A model generated the notes under the pieces. The model worked only from the letters and a program-made list of their open reading frames with translations, searched no databases and was not told the origin of the DNA. From NCBI GenBank assembly GCA_963726195.1, contig CAVSBO010000004.1, positions 64,001 through 128,000 on the forward strand: 64,000 nucleotides of DNA. The letters run 5' to 3'. Below, piece by piece: positions 1-41,588 of this stretch (positions within the stretch are counted from its first letter, which is position 1; each line of letters begins with the position of its first letter). A program made the translations under genes and the position numbers. Source of the DNA: Candidatus Thorarchaeota archaeon. GTDB lineage: Archaea; Asgardarchaeota; Thorarchaeia; Thorarchaeales; Thorarchaeaceae.

Positions 1-1050
1 TTCCGATGGTCGGATGCATTATTCGTCGAACTTGAACGGGACCTTGCGCTCTGCCGTCCGCATACATCCTTGCCAGTCCCTCGAGAAGGAAGGCAAATGC
101 CGGGTCCCAGGATACAGAACAGAATCACCGCCATCCAGAACCTGTATGTTGTACCAAAGAAACTCAGCATCAAGCTGGCTCTCTGTCGAATCTCTGGTAG
201 GCACACGGTATGGTTCAAGGATGGGGGCCAGAATGCTAGCATTCGGAGTTGGCATCTCCACTATCACATCTGTAGTGGCAAGTCCGAGGCATCCTTCAGC
301 TTCAGATATTCGATTACGCACTACCTTGTCGTAAAGTGCGCCAAAATCTCCCCAGTCCTTGCATGCCAATATGTCTGTGCAAGGGTTGCAAGTCACGACA
401 GCGTCGGCTACGTGTTGCCAGAGATATGAAAGGCCCTCTCTATAGCCTTCAAACATGCGTTCAAAGAGCCCGCCCCTCTTGAATGCGGCTGTTCGTTTTC
501 CAAATCCAAAATCAGTGATGCCTGATTTAAGCGGCATCTTCAGCGTTCTCTGCTGAGTCAGGCTCGCCAAGAACTCCATCGAGCAGAAAGCCAATCCCCG
601 TTCTTTTGACACATCCTTCGCTCGGCCACGAAAGACCGGAATGCTTTCTCGGATACCCCTGAGCGCGGATAAGTAAGGCCCAAAGCCTCGTTTATTTGCA
701 TCAAAGAACTCGTCGCAATTCTGCGCCTTAAGAGATTCTGTGACTCTCGAATCCAAACCACGCAGAACTTGTGCCAATTCCGAATCGCTTGGCACGAGCC
801 GCGCGGCACACCCAACGAACACGGCCCTCTTAGTCATCAAGTCCCGCTCCAGATAGAAAGGCGGTCCGTCTTCAAACACCCACTTCTGTTTGTCAACTAC
901 CGTGTTAAGTAGGAGTTTCAATCCAAGAAGCAACTTGCCAGATTGACCATGTACGAGACTCTGCGCGTTGAGAAAATCGAGAAACGGCTCATAGGCTGCA
1001 AGACTCAAGCGATGACGAGCCTCCAAACAGCTGGCCCAAAGTGTAAGCAT
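1..1050 (-). CDS. Hypothetical protein; probably continues past a frameshift near 100 and off the left edge
   Basis: 343-aa ORF. An alternative frame after YPGT reads PAFAFLLEGLARMYADGRAQGPVQVRRIMHPTIG, open to position 1. Confidence 0.6.
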
Positions 1051-24404: not shown

Positions 24405-26432
24405 CTAGACACACCACGCAATCGATGTGGGCGAAGCCTCACATGTCCTATCATACGCGCAAACACGCCTAGGATGATAATGCATGAGCCATAGCACAAT
24501 ATTGAGTGCCAGTGTCCCATCATAATACGAATGGTATTGATGCGTCATGCCGTAATTGTCGAATTCGAAATTGGAACCTGAGATAACGATCCTGCCACCA
24601 CCAGCACCCTGAAGGCATGCCAACACCGGGTCGATGCCGTAGCTTCCCAGAGTGGTTGCGCCGCCGGGGACTTTGATGGGTGCTCCAAGGAAGTCGAAGT
24701 CGTAAACTCCCACGGTCGTGGGATGGGCGGTGACTTGAGTAACAAGAACAGGACTGTCGCCAGAACCAACTCTGCCGTTTGTCAGAGAGAAGTTGGTCCA
24801 GCTGAGGAAATGATTGAGAGAGTGAACATCCAGACTGTCGTTTGATAGAGCAACAACGAGTATTCCACCACCGCTATTGAAGTATTGATGATAGGCTGTA
24901 ATCTCACTGTCTGAAAAGGGCACAGAGAAAATAGATGGGTTGAATGCGTCGCTCTCGTTTAAGTCCCAGACGCATGGGTCCAGCAAGAGGACTGCGTCAA
25001 ACGTGGAGAGAAGACTGTACGTGATTTCCGAGCTGTTGCGCAACTCCGTCACTGAGAACGAGTTCGTTGTGAGCTTCTTGTAGAACTCTCTGAACTGACC
25101 ATAGATTGTGTCAATGGACCAAGTCGTGTGGCTGATGTCGAAGGCTACCCTTGCAGTAGCGTCTGGAGCTGTGAACCGAATTGTGACGCGCGATGTGCCG
25201 CCGGTGTTAGATACGAATGTGATGTTGCCGCTGTAGGATGTGATACCGCTAGCTGGCACAACCACCTTCAGAGGAACAATGCCAACTTGGTTGATAGAAA
25301 CAGGCGAAGACACATTGAATATGCCTGGGGTGCTGCTGGTGATCTTAATGTCGAATGTCGCCTGCGATGACGTGAAGAGCTGCAGATTGAATTCATAGGT
25401 ATCTCCATGGAAGAGGCTCTCGAAATCAATGGGAAGTTCAGCAGGGCTTACGTATGAAATGTTAGGCAAAAGCCCTGTGCTCGAACTACCGGCTATCACT
25501 TGGATTGAATTCGTGAGATCTAATGCGCCAGCGCCAACAACATACTCTGGATAAGGCAGCGTGTCAGCACCTTTCAACAGGGCAGTCATGATTGAACCGG
25601 GTGTGAATGGCAAACTGTTCTTGATGCAGTAGGCGACCAGCTCCGCTGCCGCGGCAGACACACGTGGAGATGAAAAGGATGTTCCATAGTAGGTGGTTGT
25701 CGTCGTCTGAACGTAGCCAGCGGCGGCGATGTCTGGTTTCATATAGCTTGACGCAGTTGGGCCTGTACTTGAGAAGTAGGCCGGGGACCCATTATCATCG
25801 AGAGCCGCGACCGCTAGGCAGTCCATGAATACACCTGGCGACGAGACGCTCGTGCCGGCTCTTCCGCTGTCACCCTCGTTGCCCGCGGCTGCCACAACGA
25901 CGACTCCCTTTGAAAACGCATACTGTATCGCCTTCTCAGTTGGATCATCATAAGTTGGCGTCGAACCAAGGCTCAGATTGATGACACTGCAGTTCTGTTC
26001 GACTGCCCAGTAGATAGCGGCGATTAGTCCCGGTGTGGTGGCTTGTCCATTCGAATCAAGGATTCTTCCATTGACTATCACACAGTTTTGGCTTTCTTGA
26101 GCGATTGTCATAGCCACGAGTGTACCGTGTGGCGTGCCACCGGGCCTGGAATCAGTTGTGGTAAGGTCGCTGGAGGTGTAGCCGTAATCGACCGAAATGA
26201 AGCTCTGCTGCGAGGCGATTCTGCCCTGAAGAACGCCAGAGCTATCCATCCCCGAATCCAAGACTGCAACTCTGACTTGCCCAGTCCCTGACGAGAAAGG
26301 CCCGAGCTGCAAGAGAAGCATTACGCCGGAAGACATCACAATGAGAAGAATCACAAACACTGCCAGGAGCTTGATAGCGGTTGACGAGGACCGTTTGGGG
26401 CCGCTATCTCTGATTTCCCAATAGTTCATCAT
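24405..26432 (-). CDS. Membrane-anchored S8 subtilase + Ig-like + GldG/DUF4350-like domain (site-1-protease-like architecture)
   Basis: VAVLDSG, HGTLVA, AAGNEG, GTSFSSP catalytic motifs; VAFDISH C-terminal domain; N-terminal TM. Confidence 0.85.
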   Translation of the reverse strand: MMNYWEIRDSGPKRSSSTAIKLLAVFVILLIVMSSGVMLLLQLGPFSSGTGQVRVAVLDSGMDSSGVLQGRIASQQSFISVDYGYTSSDLTTTDSRPGGTPHGTLVAMTIAQESQNCVIVNGRILDSNGQATTPGLIAAIYWAVEQNCSVINLSLGSTPTYDDPTEKAIQYAFSKGVVVVAAAGNEGDSGRAGTSVSSPGVFMDCLAVAALDDNGSPAYFSSTGPTASSYMKPDIAAAGYVQTTTTTYYGTSFSSPRVSAAAAELVAYCIKNSLPFTPGSIMTALLKGADTLPYPEYVVGAGALDLTNSIQVIAGSSSTGLLPNISYVSPAELPIDFESLFHGDTYEFNLQLFTSSQATFDIKITSSTPGIFNVSSPVSINQVGIVPLKVVVPASGITSYSGNITFVSNTGGTSRVTIRFTAPDATARVAFDISHTTWSIDTIYGQFREFYKKLTTNSFSVTELRNSSEITYSLLSTFDAVLLLDPCVWDLNESDAFNPSIFSVPFSDSEITAYHQYFNSGGGILVVALSNDSLDVHSLNHFLSWTNFSLTNGRVGSGDSPVLVTQVTAHPTTVGVYDFDFLGAPIKVPGGATTLGSYGIDPVLACLQGAGGGRIVISGSNFEFDNYGMTHQYHSYYDGTLALNIVLWLMHYHPRRVCAYDRTCEASPTSIAWCV

Positions 26433-26704
26433 TGGATTCACCATCGAGTCACAGCTCGGGACCTGCCAAACCAATCAATCCATTGTACATGAAGCTGTTG
26501 TTCTGATACAATGCGGTCCACAGTGGAGCGATTGCATTTGAAAGGACCAACCGCAAGCGCGTTCGGAAGCCGTCGACCTGCTCAAAAGAAGCTTCAAAAG
26601 GTGGCCAGAGGAGGCCGAGTACGTTTTGGACTCCACAGAACATGTTACAAGTTGATTTATCTGGAAAAGGGCAGTCGAAGTGCTCAATCAACGGGGAACT
26701 CATC

Positions 26705-29620
26705 GTGCCAGAACAAGACGCCATCACAACTAGCCTAGGAGCTGAAGGTTTTCATTCGATACCTCTCGACGACCTGCTGCAAGTGCTCTCTGTTGATCCC
26801 AAGATTGGACTGTCGGACGAAGAGGTGAAGTCTCGCCTTCAGCAATATGGCCCCAACTCCATTCCGAAAGTCAAAGGGTCCTTCTGGAAAGTCTACTTGG
26901 CACCAATCCTGAACTGGCTGATTAACATCTATATCGTGAGCTCTGTTGCTCTTCTCGCAATCTCGTTGCTCTTTCCGTCTCCAGAGAACGGGCTCTTACA
27001 AGCCACAATCTGGATTGCTGTGGTTGCCGTGAATTGCATTGTGGCCATCTTTCAGCAGTATAGGGCCCAAAAGAAGCTTGAAGCGCTCGAGAAGCTGGCG
27101 GCAGGAGAAACAAGGGTCATACGTGACGGTTCAGAGATGAAAATAGACCCTGCCCGCATCGTGCCCGGTGATGTGATTAAACTCGAGCAGGGCGACAAGA
27201 TACCTGCTGATGCTAGGATAGTCTCATGCTCCAACCTCACGACCAATGAGGCTTCATTGACTGGTGAGAGTGTTCCCAGCACGAAGGACTACGAGGCAGT
27301 CTTGCCAGCGGCTGCTCCTATCACGGATATGACCAATACGATATTTCTGGGTACCTACGTTGCCACAGGCAGGGCACTTGCCGTCGTGACAAAGACCGGG
27401 GCCGCCACTGAGATTGGGAAGATCCAGAGAGAGCTGGAGGCGCTCAACACCGGGGATATACCTCTCCGGAAGAAAGTGAACCGACTCGCCAAGTATCTCG
27501 GCATAACGGCTCTCCTCTTGCTGGCCGTGTCCATCCTATGGCAGGTCTTCCTTCTACCGCTCATCACGAACACTCCCATCGTCATCACTCCTGAGGCTAT
27601 CGCTGCTAACCTGGAACTTGCCATACCCAGAGCCTTGACGATCATGCCCATGAATATCCCGTTGCTCACCACAATTGTGCTTCTTACTGGTGTTCTTGTC
27701 ATGGCGCAACATGGAGTAATCATCCGGGACCTCTCCGCTGTAGAGAGTCTGGGTCGGGTCAGTGTCATATGCTCAGACAAGACTGGCACATTGACGCGGA
27801 ACCAAATGACTGTCAGGTTTTGCTGGGACACGCAGAATCTCTATTCTGTAACTGGAGATGGATACGAGCCCTCAGGTCAGATATACCGACTCAAGGATTC
27901 TTCGGGAATCATGTCGTTCAATTACGAACATGAAAGCAAGCCGACTGACGTGAGAACTTCGAAGAGCCTGTACAAGCTAATGATATGCGGGGCGATAGAC
28001 AACGATTCTGAGATAGTGAAGAAGGAGATTCCCAGCCAAGGTACCGCTTGGACCGCTATCGGAGATCCGACTGATGCTGCCCTGCTTGCGCTCTTCAGAA
28101 AGACCAACCTCGATGAAGAAGATGTCAGAAAGAAGTACAAGGTGGTCAAGGAGTTTCCGTTCGAGTCTGAGCTGAAACGTGTATCAAAGATATGTCATGA
28201 CGGAAAGAAATTTGTCGCCTTTGTGAAGGGAGCAAGCGAAGTCATACTGCCAAGATGCACCACAATCGATGGAAGCGATCGCCCCTCAAAGCTCACGACC
28301 GATACTGCAGGCAAGATTCAGGGATATGTCGATAGCTTTGCAGCGATGGGATATCGTGTCATATCACTTGCTTACCATGAGATGGACTCCTTCCCCGAGT
28401 CTGAAGACGCAAGAGACCTGACCGAGAAGAACTTGGCATACCTCGGCTTTGCGTGCATTGTCGACCCGCCCCGTGATGGCGCAAAAGAAGCCGTAGAGAG
28501 TTGTCACAGTGCGGGGATTAACGTTGTGATGATTACTGGAGACGCCTCCGCCACTGCACAGACGATTGCTCGCGATTTGGGAATCTCGTCCAAGAACTCA
28601 CTAGTCGCAGAGGGTGCTTCGATTGAGGAACTCAGCGATAGCGATTTTGCAAAGGTGAATGTGTTCGCGCGCGTCAATCCTCAACACAAGCAAGTCATTG
28701 TAGAGCGGTACCAGAACCAAGGCAAAGTGGTCGCGATGACCGGAGACGGTGTCAACGATGCGCTTGCACTTGCGATGTGTGATGCAGGTATTGCCATGGG
28801 TATCACCGGTACGGATGTGGCCAAAGAAGCGGCAGACCTCGTGATAACCGACGACAGCTTCACGTCAATAGTTGAAGGTGTGCGTCAAGGAAGGGGCCTG
28901 TTCAACAAGATCCGAATGATGGTCTACTTCTACTTGGCTATCAACCTGTCTGAGAGCATTCTCTACTTTGGAGGGCTCTTCCTTCTGCCTGCGTCAATGG
29001 CAGTGCTGACATCGTGGCAGAGTCTGTACCTGATAGTCACCACTCATTCGTTTCCGGGATTGGCTCTCGTATTTGACAGAACTTCGCGTACGGCAATGGA
29101 CGAGAAACCAAGGGACAGTGAGGCAATTATCACTCATCCACTTGCCAAGTTTATGGCCCTCAACATAGTGCTGATGGCAATCGGCGCAGGGCTCGCCTAT
29201 GCATTGACCGTAACCGGGTGGTTCGGAATCGAGGGTCTCTTTCCCGAAAACGTAGGCGGTATCTACTCAGCTTCAATTGATTCCGCATTCAAGGCGAGGG
29301 TCATGATGTTGAGCGTGATGCTGCTGACCGAAAGCACGTTGGTACTCATAGTCAGACGCGTGAACATGTCTCTGAGGCGGAGTCTTAGGGAACCAGGGAC
29401 GATGATATTTGTTCCCTTCCTCGCAATCATCTATGCCGCACATTTGCTTCTGATGTACGTCCCACAGTCCCAAGGGTTATTGTCAACTGTAGGGCTTCAC
29501 TTTTACTTCCTGCCTTTGACGCTCTATGACTGGGTCATCTGCTTCTTGCTAGCTATGCCGGCAATAGTGGGTATGGAAGTGTACAAGTGGAGACTTAGAC
29601 GACAGGGCAAGACCATCTAG
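26705..29620 (+). CDS. P-type ATPase, type II (Ca2+/cation-transporting)
   Basis: LTGES, DKTGTLT, KGASE, DPPR, TGDGVNDA. Confidence 0.93.
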   Translation: MPEQDAITTSLGAEGFHSIPLDDLLQVLSVDPKIGLSDEEVKSRLQQYGPNSIPKVKGSFWKVYLAPILNWLINIYIVSSVALLAISLLFPSPENGLLQATIWIAVVAVNCIVAIFQQYRAQKKLEALEKLAAGETRVIRDGSEMKIDPARIVPGDVIKLEQGDKIPADARIVSCSNLTTNEASLTGESVPSTKDYEAVLPAAAPITDMTNTIFLGTYVATGRALAVVTKTGAATEIGKIQRELEALNTGDIPLRKKVNRLAKYLGITALLLLAVSILWQVFLLPLITNTPIVITPEAIAANLELAIPRALTIMPMNIPLLTTIVLLTGVLVMAQHGVIIRDLSAVESLGRVSVICSDKTGTLTRNQMTVRFCWDTQNLYSVTGDGYEPSGQIYRLKDSSGIMSFNYEHESKPTDVRTSKSLYKLMICGAIDNDSEIVKKEIPSQGTAWTAIGDPTDAALLALFRKTNLDEEDVRKKYKVVKEFPFESELKRVSKICHDGKKFVAFVKGASEVILPRCTTIDGSDRPSKLTTDTAGKIQGYVDSFAAMGYRVISLAYHEMDSFPESEDARDLTEKNLAYLGFACIVDPPRDGAKEAVESCHSAGINVVMITGDASATAQTIARDLGISSKNSLVAEGASIEELSDSDFAKVNVFARVNPQHKQVIVERYQNQGKVVAMTGDGVNDALALAMCDAGIAMGITGTDVAKEAADLVITDDSFTSIVEGVRQGRGLFNKIRMMVYFYLAINLSESILYFGGLFLLPASMAVLTSWQSLYLIVTTHSFPGLALVFDRTSRTAMDEKPRDSEAIITHPLAKFMALNIVLMAIGAGLAYALTVTGWFGIEGLFPENVGGIYSASIDSAFKARVMMLSVMLLTESTLVLIVRRVNMSLRRSLREPGTMIFVPFLAIIYAAHLLLMYVPQSQGLLSTVGLHFYFLPLTLYDWVICFLLAMPAIVGMEVYKWRLRRQGKTI

Positions 29621-29649: not shown

Positions 29650-31614
29650 ATGCTGCAACTGCCGTTCTTCAGTCCGTTGATTTGGGGCCTAATGCTCGCG
29701 GCCGTCTTCCTAGTTACGGCTGTAGGTTCCATCATTGAGCTGACCATGAGAGCGAGAACCCGTCAAGTGCAGAGACTGGACGCGATGCTCCTCACTCGGA
29801 TGACCATTCCTGTTCTGGAGCTGGCAAATGGTCTTGACAAGAAGGCCCTCGACAAGTCGAGTACATTGGCTGTTGTTAAACGCGCAAAGAACGCAATGCT
29901 GAGCTTTGCCGGGAGCTCAGTCGTTTCAGTGCCACTGATGATGCAGAGACTTCGCTCGCAGCTCGCTGACAGCAGCGCAATCCATGTGGCAGATGAATCC
30001 AAGCGTTGGGAACTCTCAGATGATCAGATTGCTTCGTTAGTAGAAACAATCACAACGGCTGAGGGCATGGATGTTGTTCTGACGAAGGATGGAGATTTCA
30101 TTCTAGTCACTGAATTCAAGGGACGCATGAGGGATGCGCTCAATCTTGGCGGGCGCTTGGATATCTCGTCAGAGGCCCAACGCATGAGAGTGGATCCCGG
30201 AGAGCTCAGAAAACTTGTACAGACCTGGGGTTGGGGACTGATTGAGGGGTCTGACGGTTCACTGGTTTCAACACGCTGGCTGAAGTCGACTCTTGAACGC
30301 GGTGTCGATAAGCTGGGCTATCTGGACCCGAAGGCTGAGGCAGCACGATTGCACATTCCTGTGGGAGCCATCACGGAAACAATCAAACAGCTGAAGTGGA
30401 CACTCATCGAGACACAGGACGGGAGACAGGTGCCAAGCCACCTGTTGGAGCAGCACCTTGTCGATAGCATTCGAAAGGAAGGGTTCATTGATCTCGACGC
30501 GGAATCGAAGGAGCTCAAGGTAGGTGTTCCGGACCTACTAAGACTGCTGCGCACGGCTGGCATGCGCATAGTCTCCACGAAAGACCATTCGGTTGCGACT
30601 GTCGAGTACGTGCGAGACCGAGTCAGAGACGACATGCAGCTCTCCGGCTGGGTGTCACCCGATCAAGAGGCAGAGGTCCTCGGGGTCGACAAGAACGTCA
30701 TTGACGATATCTTGAAGGGCCAGCCCGGTTTGAGAAGAGGAAGAGATGGAAGGTATGTTTCGCTAGAATCCCTTCGACGATGGCTTCTTCAGGAAGCTGA
30801 AGAAGCAGGTGTGATTCGAGTGAACGACGCGGAGACGCAATGGGGTCTGTCTCCTCTCGAACTCCAGTTACTTGTAAGAGAGTCGGGCTTGACCACGGTC
30901 GTCACGCGCTCCGGTGACTACCTATCGACCGCGTTTGTCCGCCGAAAAGTACAATCTGATCTCAGCAAAGGTGTTCGTGTGGAGCCTTCCGTTCTCGCCA
31001 GTGGTCTAGGGATCGACTCAAGAACGGCTGAAGGAATCATGGCACGGGTGAAGGGAGAAGGGCTAGTCACAGAAGATGGCTCACTAATTCCTGCGTCTCT
31101 CTTGCGAAAGAATCTTCAGCAGGCATTTGCGTCCACGGGGATAGTTGACCTGGTGAGGGAGGGCAGAACTCAGAGACTCGACGTTTCGGATCTCAGAAGG
31201 ATAGTAGTAGGCTTGGGAATAGAGACGCTGGAGACCGCAACAAACAAGCTTGTTGACGTATCGTGGATTATCAATGGCATGAGACAGGCTCTCAAACTGA
31301 AAGGAGTCTTTTACCTTGCTAGACTAGCGAGCACTCTCGAACTTGATTACGTGACAGTGGCGGAGGTTGTTGAAAAGAAGCTTGAAGCCAATGAGATGAT
31401 TGTAGACCCAGCGGGTGTGGTTGTGAATTCTGAATGGGTTGCGGATCTTCGCCAGTATTCCTCAGTTACAGACATGATACCGGTTACACAGTTATCGACC
31501 GAGATGGGCCTTAGCCCCGAGTCGGTGCTTCATTTGCTCAAGAGGTACGTGGGCGGTCTCTACAATTCGCGGACCGACTCATTCACCCCTCGACTGCAAC
31601 AAACAGGTACGTAA
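29650..31614 (+). CDS. N-terminal TM + ~11 tandem winged-helix repeats (UFL1/DDRGK1/PCI-like)
   Basis: ~55-aa period T.DG..v....l...l......G.id....a..l.v. Confidence 0.7.
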   Translation: MLQLPFFSPLIWGLMLAAVFLVTAVGSIIELTMRARTRQVQRLDAMLLTRMTIPVLELANGLDKKALDKSSTLAVVKRAKNAMLSFAGSSVVSVPLMMQRLRSQLADSSAIHVADESKRWELSDDQIASLVETITTAEGMDVVLTKDGDFILVTEFKGRMRDALNLGGRLDISSEAQRMRVDPGELRKLVQTWGWGLIEGSDGSLVSTRWLKSTLERGVDKLGYLDPKAEAARLHIPVGAITETIKQLKWTLIETQDGRQVPSHLLEQHLVDSIRKEGFIDLDAESKELKVGVPDLLRLLRTAGMRIVSTKDHSVATVEYVRDRVRDDMQLSGWVSPDQEAEVLGVDKNVIDDILKGQPGLRRGRDGRYVSLESLRRWLLQEAEEAGVIRVNDAETQWGLSPLELQLLVRESGLTTVVTRSGDYLSTAFVRRKVQSDLSKGVRVEPSVLASGLGIDSRTAEGIMARVKGEGLVTEDGSLIPASLLRKNLQQAFASTGIVDLVREGRTQRLDVSDLRRIVVGLGIETLETATNKLVDVSWIINGMRQALKLKGVFYLARLASTLELDYVTVAEVVEKKLEANEMIVDPAGVVVNSEWVADLRQYSSVTDMIPVTQLSTEMGLSPESVLHLLKRYVGGLYNSRTDSFTPRLQQTGT

Positions 31615-31701
31615 CCAGAAGTATGCTTGGCGTATATACAATATGTTCCTACCGCTCTCGATATGGGAACTCTATAAATAAGCGGTTTGTCTTGTATTCT
31701 G

Positions 31702-32565
31702 ATGGGTGCACTTACTGTGGGCCGCATGACCACTCACAAGATTAGGCAGATGAAGGGCAAGAAGAAGATCGTAATGCTGACCGCTTACGATGCTCCATGT
31801 GCTCGAATCCTGAGCGACAACGGAGTTGACATCATTCTTGTTGGAGACTCTGTCGGCAATTCGTTGCTCGGCTACGAGAGCACGATACCCGTGACCTTGG
31901 ATGACATAATCCACCACTCCGCAGCAGTGGCAAGGGCAAAGCCAAGCTCGCTAATTGTCGGCGACATGCCTTTCATGTCGTACAAAATCAGCGAAGAACA
32001 GGCTCTCGAGAACTGTGCCTTGATGCTTCAAGAAGGCGGAGCTGAGGCCGTCAAAATGGAGGGCAGCGGACGCGTTGCGGACAGAGTTGAGGCAGTTGTG
32101 GAGGCAGGGATTCCCGTCATGGGCCATATTGGTCTCACGCCTCAGTCAATCTACGAGTTCGGAGGATACAGGGTACAAGGGCGGACTTCGGAATCTGCTG
32201 AGATGCTTGTCCAGCAGGCTAGAAGACTTGAAGATGCAGGAGCCTTCTCACTCGTGATTGAACTGGTACCTGATGAAACTGCCAAGATGATCACTGAGGC
32301 CGTCGAAATACCCACAATCGGAATAGGAGCCGGTCCTTATTGTGATGGCCAAGTCTTGGTGCTGTGGGATATGCTGGGCCTGTTTGAGGATTTCAAGCCC
32401 AAATTCGTAAAGAAGTATGCAAACATCAGAGGCGTAATATCTGATGCAGTAAAGCAATATGCCACCGAGGTGCGAGAGGGCGAGTTCCCCGACTCGGAGC
32501 ATAGTTTCGCTATGGAAGAAGAGAACTCCGGTCGACTGTACGGACGTGAAAAGCCCCCTGAGTGA
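31702..32565 (+). CDS. panB: 3-methyl-2-oxobutanoate hydroxymethyltransferase
   Basis: MLTAYD, LVGDS, DMPFMSY, GHIGLTPQ, IGIGAG, DGQVLV. Confidence 0.96.
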   Translation: MGALTVGRMTTHKIRQMKGKKKIVMLTAYDAPCARILSDNGVDIILVGDSVGNSLLGYESTIPVTLDDIIHHSAAVARAKPSSLIVGDMPFMSYKISEEQALENCALMLQEGGAEAVKMEGSGRVADRVEAVVEAGIPVMGHIGLTPQSIYEFGGYRVQGRTSESAEMLVQQARRLEDAGAFSLVIELVPDETAKMITEAVEIPTIGIGAGPYCDGQVLVLWDMLGLFEDFKPKFVKKYANIRGVISDAVKQYATEVREGEFPDSEHSFAMEEENSGRLYGREKPPE

Positions 32566-36038: not shown

Positions 36039-36592
36039 ATGACAGGGCAAGTATCTGACGAGGTACTGTACAGAAAGAAGTCTTCTCGCTGGTGGCTGTC
36101 AACGGCAAAGGTCTTTACACACCCGAGGATTTCGGGATGAAACCCTACTCCTCATGCACTGCCTGCTGGAGAGGCTACATGATGTGGTACAAATGCGAGA
36201 ACGACAAGCTCATCCTTGACGGCATGTCGATCAATGTTGACAAGCCGACGAAGGTAAACGGCATCCTACCGAAGCCGACAACGGACATGTTCAAGTTCAT
36301 GTACGAAGGGCTGTCCCTCAAGACGAGATTAAGCGGCTCCATGCTGATTGCCAAGGACTTCATCCAGTCGATGTACGTGCACATGGGATTCCAGAGCCCG
36401 GAGGCTTACAAGACTGTTCTCCAGTTAGAAGTGCAGAACGGAGACATAGTGAAAGAAGACGACCTATCAGCGAAAATGGAAGCGCGGCGAAGAGAGGGTC
36501 CTTTGGGCGCCCAAGCCCCTCGTTCCGGGGAAAAAGGAGACATGATGGAGTGGATTGAGCGTAGGTTCTCTCTTGACCGCGAATCAGGCTAG
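36039..36592 (+). CDS. Conserved hypothetical protein (frameshift ~36078)
   Basis: MTGQVSD start; TACWRGY and YVHMGFQ motifs. Confidence 0.65.
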
Positions 36593-39914: not shown

Positions 39915-41588
39915 CTATTTCTCGGGGCGTCCTAGAGATCTAATACCAATCTGGAATATCAATAGGCCCGACAATGTCAGGGGAAGACTGCCAAACAGAA
40001 AGAACGCATAGCTGGGGTCCGTTCCAAGCCAACCTGAACTAATCACTGCGACTGGCAGTCCTAGCGAAAACACCATCACAACTACGAGGGCCGAGATTAT
40101 GTTTAGCTTGTACATGGAGGAATGTTGGTCCTCGTATGTAGGGTTTATGGCTGTAACTCCAATCCCCGTGAGAGTAGACCCCCACACCAGCAACAGAGCT
40201 TGGCCAAAGATGGTTAGGCTAAGGGGAATGCTGAGTCCTAATAACCAGGTTGCCACGGCAGGCAAAACTGCGAGCGGCAAGGACAAGATAACCATCGCCA
40301 TCAGACGTGCATGAACTAGCTTATCCGATCCTCTTGGCGTAGTCTTGAAAACCCAGAGATGGTTCCTGCTCTCAAGGAAGCCCGTGCCACTAAATGATGC
40401 AACAGCGACAGTCGGGTATACCATGGTTACTGCCATCACCGCAAGGAGGAATATGACTCTAGGAATCAGCGACATGGTTTGGCTGTCCAGCCCACCCATA
40501 CTAGTGACAACAATCTGTACCACAAACCCGGGGATGGTCCCCAGGACAAGCGCGTAACAGTATCTGACAATGTTTGCGGTCTTCCGAAAGAAGTCCTTCA
40601 TTGCAACAACCACAAGTGCACCGGTTGGCCACCCGAAGACACGCCTAATACCGCGAAAGAATCTGTTCTCTTTGCGGACAGTCCTCACGATTTCGGTTCG
40701 GGCACCCAGGTCAAAAGTGAACACTCTATCTGCCGCCAGTGCTCCAGCCACAAGAGACAACAATGCAAAGGCCAACATGAGTACAGCACATCCCTGCGCG
40801 CTAGAGACAAGTACTGACTCAAATGCTTCTAGCTGCGCTGGTGAGAGCAATACCCCACTAAACAGCAGAACACTCCAAGTAACCAAATCCGCTCCCCAAG
40901 TGAAAGGCAGGAAGATTACCAGCTCGCTCTTCATCGACTGGTTCAGCAAATCAGGCAAGTATAGAAACAATATCACGGGCACTATCAGAATCAAAGCAGT
41001 CAGAACGCTAATCACCTTGGCGATGGCATCCCCGCGAGAGGATTGTGCCAGCCTCCCTCGAACTGTCGATGCCAGTATGTCTGATATCCAGAGTGCCGGG
41101 AACGTCGTGACGAGAACGCTCGCGTATATCGCAAGCACCCCTTCCCACTGTACCTGAAAGGTCGATATGACCGGTGAGATTAGGAGAGGTGACAGGCCCA
41201 TGACAAGGAAGAAATAGACAGGAACCTTGCCCAGCCATTGGCCAAAGAGTATGCTACGTGTGCTTGTGCCAGTGCTGAGGAGTATCTCACATTGTGCTAT
41301 CTTCATTTCCTGAACTGCTTTCGATATAGGGAATGCAAAGAACAGTAGCCACAACATCATAGTCACAGCCCTGACCATTGAGGACGGGTCGCTTGCGATG
41401 AGAATACTAAGGGCGGGCAGGAATTGACCGAATACGATGTCCAGCAGCCTAAAGGCGATCGTAGAGACCCATATGATGACGCCCAGCAGAAGTCCGATAA
41501 GGGCACTCTTTCGTGCTCTTCTGATTCTCTCTGTCGAGAGTAGGAACTCAACTTTCGCAATGGCTAGCCATTCCCTAGGCATACTCAC
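39915..41588 (-). CDS. ABC exporter permease (duplicated ABC-2-like, ~12 TM)
   Basis: Multi-TM; AIAKVEF and VAMKDF repeat starts; adjacent to the ATPase. Confidence 0.8.
   Translation of the reverse strand: MSMPREWLAIAKVEFLLSTERIRRARKSALIGLLLGVIIWVSTIAFRLLDIVFGQFLPALSILIASDPSSMVRAVTMMLWLLFFAFPISKAVQEMKIAQCEILLSTGTSTRSILFGQWLGKVPVYFFLVMGLSPLLISPVISTFQVQWEGVLAIYASVLVTTFPALWISDILASTVRGRLAQSSRGDAIAKVISVLTALILIVPVILFLYLPDLLNQSMKSELVIFLPFTWGADLVTWSVLLFSGVLLSPAQLEAFESVLVSSAQGCAVLMLAFALLSLVAGALAADRVFTFDLGARTEIVRTVRKENRFFRGIRRVFGWPTGALVVVAMKDFFRKTANIVRYCYALVLGTIPGFVVQIVVTSMGGLDSQTMSLIPRVIFLLAVMAVTMVYPTVAVASFSGTGFLESRNHLWVFKTTPRGSDKLVHARLMAMVILSLPLAVLPAVATWLLGLSIPLSLTIFGQALLLVWGSTLTGIGVTAINPTYEDQHSSMYKLNIISALVVVMVFSLGLPVAVISSGWLGTDPSYAFFLFGSLPLTLSGLLIFQIGIRSLGRPEK

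Follow-up and report, generated by a model that had tools for sequence, protein, structure and literature searches.

The locus and its winged-helix protein

The window analysed here is a 64,000-nucleotide stretch of the genome of a Candidatus Thorarchaeota archaeon (assembly GCA_963726195.1, contig CAVSBO010000004.1, positions 64,001 to 128,000 of the forward strand). Our subject is a gene at positions 29650..31614 of its plus strand (P0001), which encodes a 654-amino-acid (aa) array of winged-helix (WH) units with a predicted membrane anchor, and the relation of this protein to UFL1 and DDRGK1 (also called UFBP1) of the eukaryotic UFM1 E3 complex. The open reading frame (ORF) is intact, running from an ATG start to a TAA stop, and the start codon is kept in those orthologues that align from residue 1-2. 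A hydropathy scan of the protein shows a single hydrophobic stretch at residues ~9-31 (29674..29742, plus strand; Kyte-Doolittle peak at 11-29), preceded by an uncharged tail of 8 residues and followed by R34, R36 and R38. This transmembrane (TM) helix is present in nearly all full-length orthologues, although its sequence is the least conserved part of the protein (0.42 compared with 0.47-0.65 for the WH units, the highest value being that of WH3, 0.65). Since the N-terminal tail is uncharged and the three arginines follow the helix, an N-out/C-in orientation is predicted. The WH array of ~620 residues is thus predicted to lie in the cytoplasm, on the basis of the positive-inside rule and of Thorarchaeota relatives in which a signal peptide, PKD domains and a TM helix precede a homologous WH array.

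A model of the whole protein made with AlphaFold2 (AF2), built on seven orthologues, has a mean predicted local distance difference test score (pLDDT) of 84.3. It consists of a long helix (residues 9-47) followed by eleven WH units of the order H1-b1-H2-H3-b2-b3, joined without linkers at a period of ~55 aa, and a second model of the N-terminal four units (residues 28-265) reached a pLDDT of 90.3. The first-pass annotation, made from the letters of the sequence, had described one N-terminal TM helix and about 11 repeats of ~55 aa, which it took to be winged helices. The helix is borne out by both the hydropathy scan and the model, and the model contains exactly 11 WH units, with the wing tetrapeptides that had been listed (SFAG, TKDG, GSDG, TQDG, TKDH, GRDG, TRSG, TEDG, TATN, DPAG and NSRT) all present at successive b2-b3 turns. 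When sub-profiles of the units were cut from the alignment of the 22 full-length orthologues, those of WH2-WH11 matched one another with hhalign probabilities mostly above 90%, whereas WH1 matched the other units with a probability of at most 12%. Hence the repeat is real and arose by duplication, and the first unit is distinct. The four N-terminal units are followed by seven more tandem units, WH5-WH11 (residues 263-648; 30436..31593, plus strand), identified from the AF2 model and their mutual homology; there is no C-terminal helical domain, and WH11 closes the chain with b-strands at 636-639 and 644-647. The protein is mildly acidic (net charge -5, pI 5.9), as are most orthologues, and no unit past WH1 is strongly basic.

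Upstream of the WH gene on the same strand lies a gene for a Ca-ATPase-like P-type ATPase of 992 aa (26642..29620), with LMCA1, SPCA1 and SERCA as its best PDB relatives (E 1e-114 to 1e-99), and downstream lies panB (31687..32565, plus strand). The 29-nt gap between the ATPase and WH genes is without a TATA-like box while panB has its own (~31663-31672), which makes it likely from the sequence that the WH gene is co-transcribed with the ATPase. The start codon of panB is probably the ATG at 31702 rather than the TTG at 31687 given in the ORF list, with the TATA-like box CTATAAATA ~30 nt upstream. Divergent from the ATPase is a gene for an S8 subtilase of 689 aa whose N-terminus bears a TM or signal segment (24405-26474, minus strand), found at the same position in every related genome examined. 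The local order of divergent S8 peptidase, P-type ATPase, WH gene and panB is kept in 12 genomes of at least nine genera; in all 12, the ATPase and WH genes are on the same strand and spaced by -20 to +29 nt. Identity across related loci is 32-52% for the WH protein, 60-70% for the ATPase and 76-83% for panB, the WH gene being the fastest evolving of the three.

A word-based protein search found 9 proteins, the query and two fragments included. An exhaustive profile search of 1.84 billion representatives gave 35 matches, comprising 17 near-full-length orthologues of 475-665 aa with fragments and multidomain relatives making up the rest. The full-length orthologues (n=22) share 31-79% identity, and the public records of orthologues come from Candidatus Thorarchaeota, where they are annotated only as 'hypothetical protein'. 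Among 400 Asgard genomes the family is confined to one GTDB family (coded f1), in which it occurs as a single copy in 22 of 85 genomes and in 10 genera; an hmmsearch of all ORFs of at least 70 aa found no paralogue in the source genome. In five genomes from three genera the WH gene is missing from an otherwise unchanged neighbourhood, so that panB comes straight after the ATPase, and the ATPase tree requires three changes between presence and absence, at least two of them on well-supported branches. The DNA sequencing runs that contain the locus at a share of about 0.5 are peat metagenomes.

Relation to UFL1 and DDRGK1

In a Pfam search at E<=10, the sole family matched by the WH protein was PF09743 (E3_UFM1_ligase), at 26.1 bits compared with a cut-off of 23.2 bits (E 8e-6, residues 117-216). 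The same family is matched by 21 of the 22 orthologues (best E 5.6e-12), and no other family is found in more than five of them; in NCBIfam no family matches the protein. The matching segment (29998..30297, plus strand) corresponds to PF09743 positions 16-119 and to the half WH (pWH) and WH1 of human UFL1, which is precisely where the first-pass annotation had noticed that a segment, VVLTKDG...RMRVD, resembled the N-terminal region of UFL1. A search of 177,635 distinct PDB sequences with a profile of the 22 orthologues gave only two significant matches, namely 8b9x, an engineered DDRGK1-UFL1 fusion (3.3e-8), and the UFL1 chain 8c0d_A (4.1e-5). A family profile is needed for this signal, the single-sequence search having yielded only noise (a phage P4 packaging enzyme at E 0.45). 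The exhaustive profile search returned no eukaryotic UFL1 at E<=0.001, so the link to eukaryotes rests on Pfam, the PDB profiles and structure. With regard to structure, the top five Foldseek matches of the model are all UFL1 chains (4.7e-13 to 3.1e-9), separated by 5-8 orders of magnitude from the next fold class (RPC82 at ~1e-4, SelB at 1.4e-4 and ESCRT-II at 6.8e-3). A VIA structure alignment to UFL1 extends over 345 residues with a Z score of 12.1, with WH5-WH11 aligned to UFL1 residues 29-517. Owing to the flexibility of the arrays, TM-scores against full-length UFL1 reach only about 0.2.

Tandem winged helices are not peculiar to UFL1, and the first-pass annotation had itself named generic arrays of the SelB, ESCRT-II and PCI kind as the comparison to be made. 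UFL1 proved to be by far the better match: Pfam families of DNA-binding winged helix-turn-helix (wHTH), SelB, ESCRT-II and PCI type gave no match in the window protein at E<=10, and any HTH family occurs in five or fewer of the 22 orthologues. The modest score of the window protein by itself on PF09743, the origin of that signal in one region and the low TM-scores would be consistent with a generic or convergent WH repeat that has no specific relation to UFL1 or DDRGK1. Set against this are the recurrence of the PF09743 match among the orthologues, the restriction of the PDB profile matches to UFL1 and DDRGK1, the Foldseek gap and the end-to-end alignment of residues 28-265 with 8b9x described below. 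A second Asgard family, also described below, acts as a bridge (hhalign E 1e-6), itself scoring 50-72 bits on PF09743. We rejected the generic wHTH reading on the Pfam, PDB and Foldseek results, and regard a merely convergent repeat as scarcely credible and already largely refuted. Taken together, the profile matches and the predicted structures indicate that the WH protein very probably shares a genuine, if distant, homology with the spine of winged helices in the UFM1 E3 complex of eukaryotes.

Human DDRGK1 consists of a TM helix, a long helix, a winged helix termed WH1' and half a WH, while human UFL1 consists of helix alpha1, half a WH, WH1-5 and a C-terminal region, with the two half WHs combining into one composite domain (PMC9627666, PMC10937380). 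The Thorarchaeota protein has a comparable order. The juxtamembrane helix and WH1 (residues 32-93; 29743..29928, plus strand) form a divergent, PCI/cullin-WHB-like segment that would be the positional equivalent of DDRGK1 WH1'. The best single-domain matches of WH1 are the winged helices of cullin WHB, the proteasome lid and eIF3a PCI (Z ~8), which fits the PCI-like description of the human domains (PMC9627666). WH2 (residues 94-155; 29929..30114, plus strand) is complete within one chain and appears to be the unbroken counterpart of the composite pWH'-pWH domain of eukaryotes. Its second half is where the half WH of UFL1 aligns, and in eukaryotes the partial WH is completed in trans by DDRGK1. 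WH3 and WH4 (residues 156-262; 30115..30435, plus strand) would be the positional equivalents of UFL1 WH1 and WH2, as judged from the AF2 models and the alignment to 8b9x.

Several alignments run through the point at which the eukaryotic chains are separate. With a 7-sequence family profile, the HMMER alignment crosses the DDRGK1|UFL1 junction of 8b9x (query 95-188 to chain 76-169). The model of residues 28-265 has 8b9x as its best match (Foldseek E 5e-9, TM 0.48-0.50), and VIA aligns it with 8b9x_A end to end (model 3..238 to chain 0..255, 231 residues, Z 11.1). WH1 is placed on the DDRGK1 WH1' part of the fusion in this alignment; other registers also fit (8c0d_E on model residues 68-154). 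The DDRGK Pfam family (PF09756) gave no match at E<=10 for the whole protein or for residues 32-155, and is absent among the best 25 of the 28 Pfam families listed for the 22 orthologues. The order of TM anchor, PCI-like WH, the WH that is split in eukaryotes and UFL1-type WHs is colinear with DDRGK1 followed by UFL1, and a single-chain DDRGK1-UFL1-like architecture is supported by these sequence alignments and models.

PF09743 is found in 177 of the 400 Asgard genomes, including 118 of 135 genomes of a second family (coded f9). The proteins that carry it in f9 are soluble, ~790 aa long, and have Cys-rich zinc ribbons at the N-terminus and a beta-rich module at the C-terminus. DDRGK is matched in the same ORFs, just ahead of the UFL1 matches, and the two Pfam matches are adjacent in many genomes. 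In one such protein (L051:1189-3348, plus strand), DDRGK is matched at 66.4 bits (residues 105-219), E3_UFM1_ligase at 61.6 bits (residues 232-436) and a PCI domain at 82.9 bits, and the sequence aligns contiguously through 8b9x (E 1.6e-8); further f9 proteins are encoded at L022-L033 and L052-L058. Since DDRGK and E3_UFM1_ligase are found in one ORF, both eukaryotic proteins correspond to one chain in Asgard archaea. Profile comparison relates the f9 proteins to the window family (hhalign E ~1e-6). In a separate search, a 185-aa ORF with a WH and a zinc ribbon elsewhere in the source genome (L001) matched DDRGK at 21 bits, below the cut-off, and was not accepted as DDRGK1.

The first-pass annotation had suggested a single-chain precursor or analogue of the eukaryotic pair. 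The single chain stands, through the 8b9x alignment and the f9 family; a direct precursor does not, the Thorarchaeota family being a fast-evolving and repeatedly lost side branch. Tentatively, the two families can be read jointly: UFL1 and DDRGK1 might be the halves of one Asgard gene that broke inside a WH, with the Thorarchaeota protein keeping the unsplit, membrane-anchored state. Membrane docking of large ribosomal subunits would then be older than UFM1 and the endoplasmic reticulum (ER), and the new N-terminus would be the place where the UFC1-binding helix arose. We think this scenario rather improbable as a whole. If true, the gene break inside a WH would account for the need of the human pair to rebuild a composite WH.

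WH arrays of this lineage are also found in other contexts. Five Thorarchaeota and metagenome proteins (P0032, P0031, P0037, P0042 and P0045) have a type-I membrane layout, in which a signal peptide and PKD/DUF2341/NosD/NHL domains outside the cell are followed by a single TM helix and, on the cytoplasmic side, by WH units that are homologous to WH8-WH11 of the window protein (E 1e-25 to 1e-4). Surface proteins of the Thorarchaeota lineage thus seem to use WH arrays as their cytoplasmic tails. P0032 ends in an unannotated module of ~265 residues that is present in several copies in 43 of 43 f1 genomes searched, with very different N-terminal partners, and its beta-rich start resembles, by eye, the C-terminal module of the f9 proteins. 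In the source genome, outside the window, this module ends a 758-aa protein of repeated zinc ribbons (L063:1470-3746, plus strand, the same as G000:C4:161969-164245) and also occurs at G000:C17:37251-38103. A hybrid is encoded by a 773-aa ORF (G063:C20), in which ~120 N-terminal residues resemble the TM helix, WH1 and WH2 of the window family (E 5.5e-6) and the C-terminus is a P0032-type module.

Possible roles of the winged-helix array

The observation in the first-pass annotation that no UFM1 machinery is visible in the window holds, and at Pfam sensitivity it extends to the source genome (2.9 Mb, 19 contigs, 88.9% complete), in which no match was found to Ufm1 (PF03671), UFC1 (PF08694), Peptidase_C78/UfSP (PF07910), CDK5RAP3 (PF05600) or UQ_con/E2 (PF00179). 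These absences are weak evidence, since the same search missed the weak PF09743 match of the WH gene itself. One ThiF-type E1 is the only such protein in the genome, and no Ufm1 above the Pfam cut-off is found in 201 Asgard genomes. The WH protein also differs from the human pair in its parts. In human UFL1, helix alpha1 and the hinge bind UFC1 and are required for ligase activity (PMC10937380). A free N-terminal helix of this kind has no counterpart in the WH protein because the WH is intact at that position, which is occupied by the first half of WH2 with WH1 and the TM helix before it. The C-terminal helical domain of UFL1 (CTR/CTD, tRNA sites) is likewise absent, with no helical bundle in the AF2 model, and only ~16 helical residues (32-47) separate the TM helix from WH1, leaving no long docking region of the DDRGK1 type.

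Given that the UFC1-binding helix, the C-terminal domain and the UFM1 parts are all missing, the protein is most likely a non-enzymatic, modifier-free scaffold. In the explanation that we consider the best overall, and to which we give about an even chance, the TM helix would hold the WH array at the cytoplasmic (inner) face of the membrane, where the array would work without a ubiquitin-like modifier as a docking scaffold for a large cytosolic complex. A scaffold that works independently of UFM1 is, in our view, probable. The WH domains of the human complex lie along the 60S subunit and contact its ribosomal proteins eL13, eL36 and eL42 (PMC10937380), and by this analogy the large ribosomal subunit is the leading candidate client; eL13 is present in the source genome. 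That the ribosome is indeed the client is nevertheless doubtful, and another large cytosolic complex could take its place.

A number of points weigh against this proposal. The modules that confer ribosome specificity on the human complex, namely the DDRGK1 N-terminal docking helix, the UFL1 C-terminal domain and CDK5RAP3, are all absent; eL36 was not found in the source genome; and the mild acidity of the protein (pI ~6) makes broad rRNA binding unlikely. Ufm1 homologues have been reported in nine Asgard clades by a structure-based search (PMC12962969), and the absence noted here rests on Pfam in a genome that is 88.9% complete. The sequence similarity to UFL1 is restricted to one region, WH2-WH3, and the structural register of single WH units is ambiguous, the units being alike. 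A colinear profile-profile alignment of the Thorarchaeota and f9 families is top-ranked but weak (E 0.018), and it is therefore the combination of sequence anchor, full-length alignment and TM-helix position that supports the register. No RNA sequencing runs with the locus are listed. Finally, the WH gene was lost at least 2-3 times within f1 and is absent from 63 of the 85 f1 genomes searched; its repeated loss indicates that the gene, and thus any role that it has, is dispensable.

The position of the gene raises a different possibility, in which the protein would be an accessory or regulatory subunit of the probably co-transcribed Ca-type ATPase, its TM helix binding the pump and its WH array linking cytoplasmic partners. 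The close, same-strand spacing behind the ATPase in 12 genomes of at least nine genera, the lack of a TATA-like box in the 29-nt gap, where panB has a box of its own, and the SERCA/SPCA/LMCA1-like character of the pump are all consistent with this. However, the five genomes of three genera that keep the ATPase without the WH gene show that the pump does not need the WH protein, and gene order is conserved over the whole region, so that adjacency may simply be inherited. A pump-binding helix would moreover be expected to be conserved, whereas in this protein conservation is lowest in the TM segment. We consider such a subunit unlikely.

Homology to UFL1 could also point to a scaffold-type E3 for a cryptic modifier, served by a divergent Ufm1-like protein and a divergent E2 that are invisible to Pfam. 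The most conserved and most UFL1-like part of the protein, WH2-WH4, is the counterpart of the minimal ligase module in human UFL1/UFBP1 (PMC9627666), and both the Ufm1 homologues of the nine Asgard clades and the ThiF-type E1 of the source genome would fit a cascade of this kind. The Pfam searches, which found no Ufm1, UFC1, UQ_con, UfSP or CDK5RAP3 in the genome and no Ufm1 above the cut-off in the 201 Asgard genomes, speak against it, as does the lack of a counterpart of the alpha1 helix, and according to the published view UFM1 is younger than the Asgard homologues (PMC10183829). A cryptic ligase is accordingly quite improbable in our estimation. Nor do we put much weight on a membrane-tethered nucleic-acid binder, acting as an anchor for the chromosome, a plasmid or mRNA. 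Winged helices are classical DNA and RNA binders, the WH domains of SelB bind SECIS RNA, and the C-terminal WH arrays of SelB are the best structural matches outside UFL1 (E 1e-4, Z ~8). The mild acidity of the protein and of most orthologues, together with the lack of a strongly basic unit past WH1, argues against general nucleic-acid binding, no DNA-binding HTH family recurs among the orthologues, and the PCI-like WH domains of the UFL1 type bind proteins (PMC10937380); we judge a nucleic-acid tether very improbable.

Other features of the window and genome can be noted briefly. Two further ORFs, one of 166 aa (36092-36592, plus strand) and one of 557 aa (39915-41588, minus strand), match no Pfam family, and the former has counterparts of 37-44% identity near the locus in several related genomes. 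An Rfam search found nothing in the window. A tRNA-Sec with the anticodon TCA is predicted at G000:C13:134005-134095, and use of selenocysteine by the organism is therefore probable. No more than 20 tRNAs were detected by ARAGORN genome-wide, perhaps because many tRNA genes are intron-bearing or unassembled.

Comparison with known systems

The UFM1 ligase is an unusual E3. RING, HECT and RBR domains are all absent from it, and it is put together from winged helices, including one to which two proteins each contribute a part. The reason for this build, and the task of the scaffold before UFM1, are the questions on which this locus bears. The window locus and the f9 family suggest that the archaeal counterpart of the pair is one chain in which the composite WH is an ordinary one and which has neither a UFC1-binding helix nor a tRNA-site domain. 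In one lineage the scaffold would already be tethered to a membrane through an N-terminal TM helix, which is how DDRGK1 is held at the ER, and the Thorarchaeota protein may indicate what the scaffold looked like before UFM1 tagging. It offers a natural model of the minimal ligase module, and in such a simple single-chain protein a function that predates UFM1 becomes directly testable through the binding partners of the cytoplasmic domain, although the dispensability of the gene in many relatives limits its value. The Asgard origin of UFL1 and DDRGK1 has already been published (PMC10183829), and Asgard homologues as such are known. We found no description in the literature of a single-chain or TM-anchored Asgard form; what is new here is the TM-anchored, all-WH single chain of 11 units and the explicit evidence that the eukaryotic pair corresponds to one archaeal chain.

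Among known systems, the tandem WH arrays of SelB (C-terminal WH1-4), RPC82/RPC62 of RNA polymerase III and ESCRT-II resemble the WH protein in general build, but they are 5-8 orders of magnitude weaker in Foldseek, give no sequence-level signal and are in no case membrane-anchored. Human UFL1 (PF09743; 8qfc_B, 8ohd_A, 9gy4_E and 8c0d_A) is the top structural match and shares the tandem PCI-like WHs, whose first helices form a backbone, as well as sequence similarity over its pWH and WH1 (the GGR..I....VD region). It differs in having pWH and five WHs where the window protein has 11 units, and in possessing a UFC1-binding helix, a C-terminal helical domain and a PTC loop. The window protein, for its part, has the first UFL1-like WH complete in cis and its own TM anchor, and no UFM1 cascade is detectable in its genome. 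Human DDRGK1 (PF09756; 8ohd_C and 8c0d_B) has an N-terminal TM helix, a PCI-like WH and half of the next WH, which would also be the order of residues 1-120 here, and a cytosolic C-terminus, as is predicted for the window protein. The latter is nevertheless without a Pfam DDRGK match, its chain continues past the half WH, and its ~16 residues between membrane and WH1 stand in place of the long helical region with a ribosome-docking sequence.

The remaining two comparisons involve single chains. The ~790-aa f9 proteins, which we take to be the Asgard UFL1/DDRGK1 homologues of Picchianti et al. 2023 (PMC10183829), are archaeal and, like the window family, join a DDRGK-like WH to UFL1-like WHs and have no UFM1 partner known from sequence. 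They differ from it in being soluble and in having zinc ribbons, a strong PCI domain, a beta-rich C-terminus and 50-72 bits on PF09743 and PF09756, whereas the window family is TM-anchored, consists of WH units only and is restricted to one Thorarchaeota family. The engineered fusion 8b9x is artificial, is made of human parts with four WHs and no TM helix, and shares ~14-16% identity with the window protein. Residues 28-265 nonetheless align with it from end to end, and the Thorarchaeota protein can be regarded as its natural counterpart.

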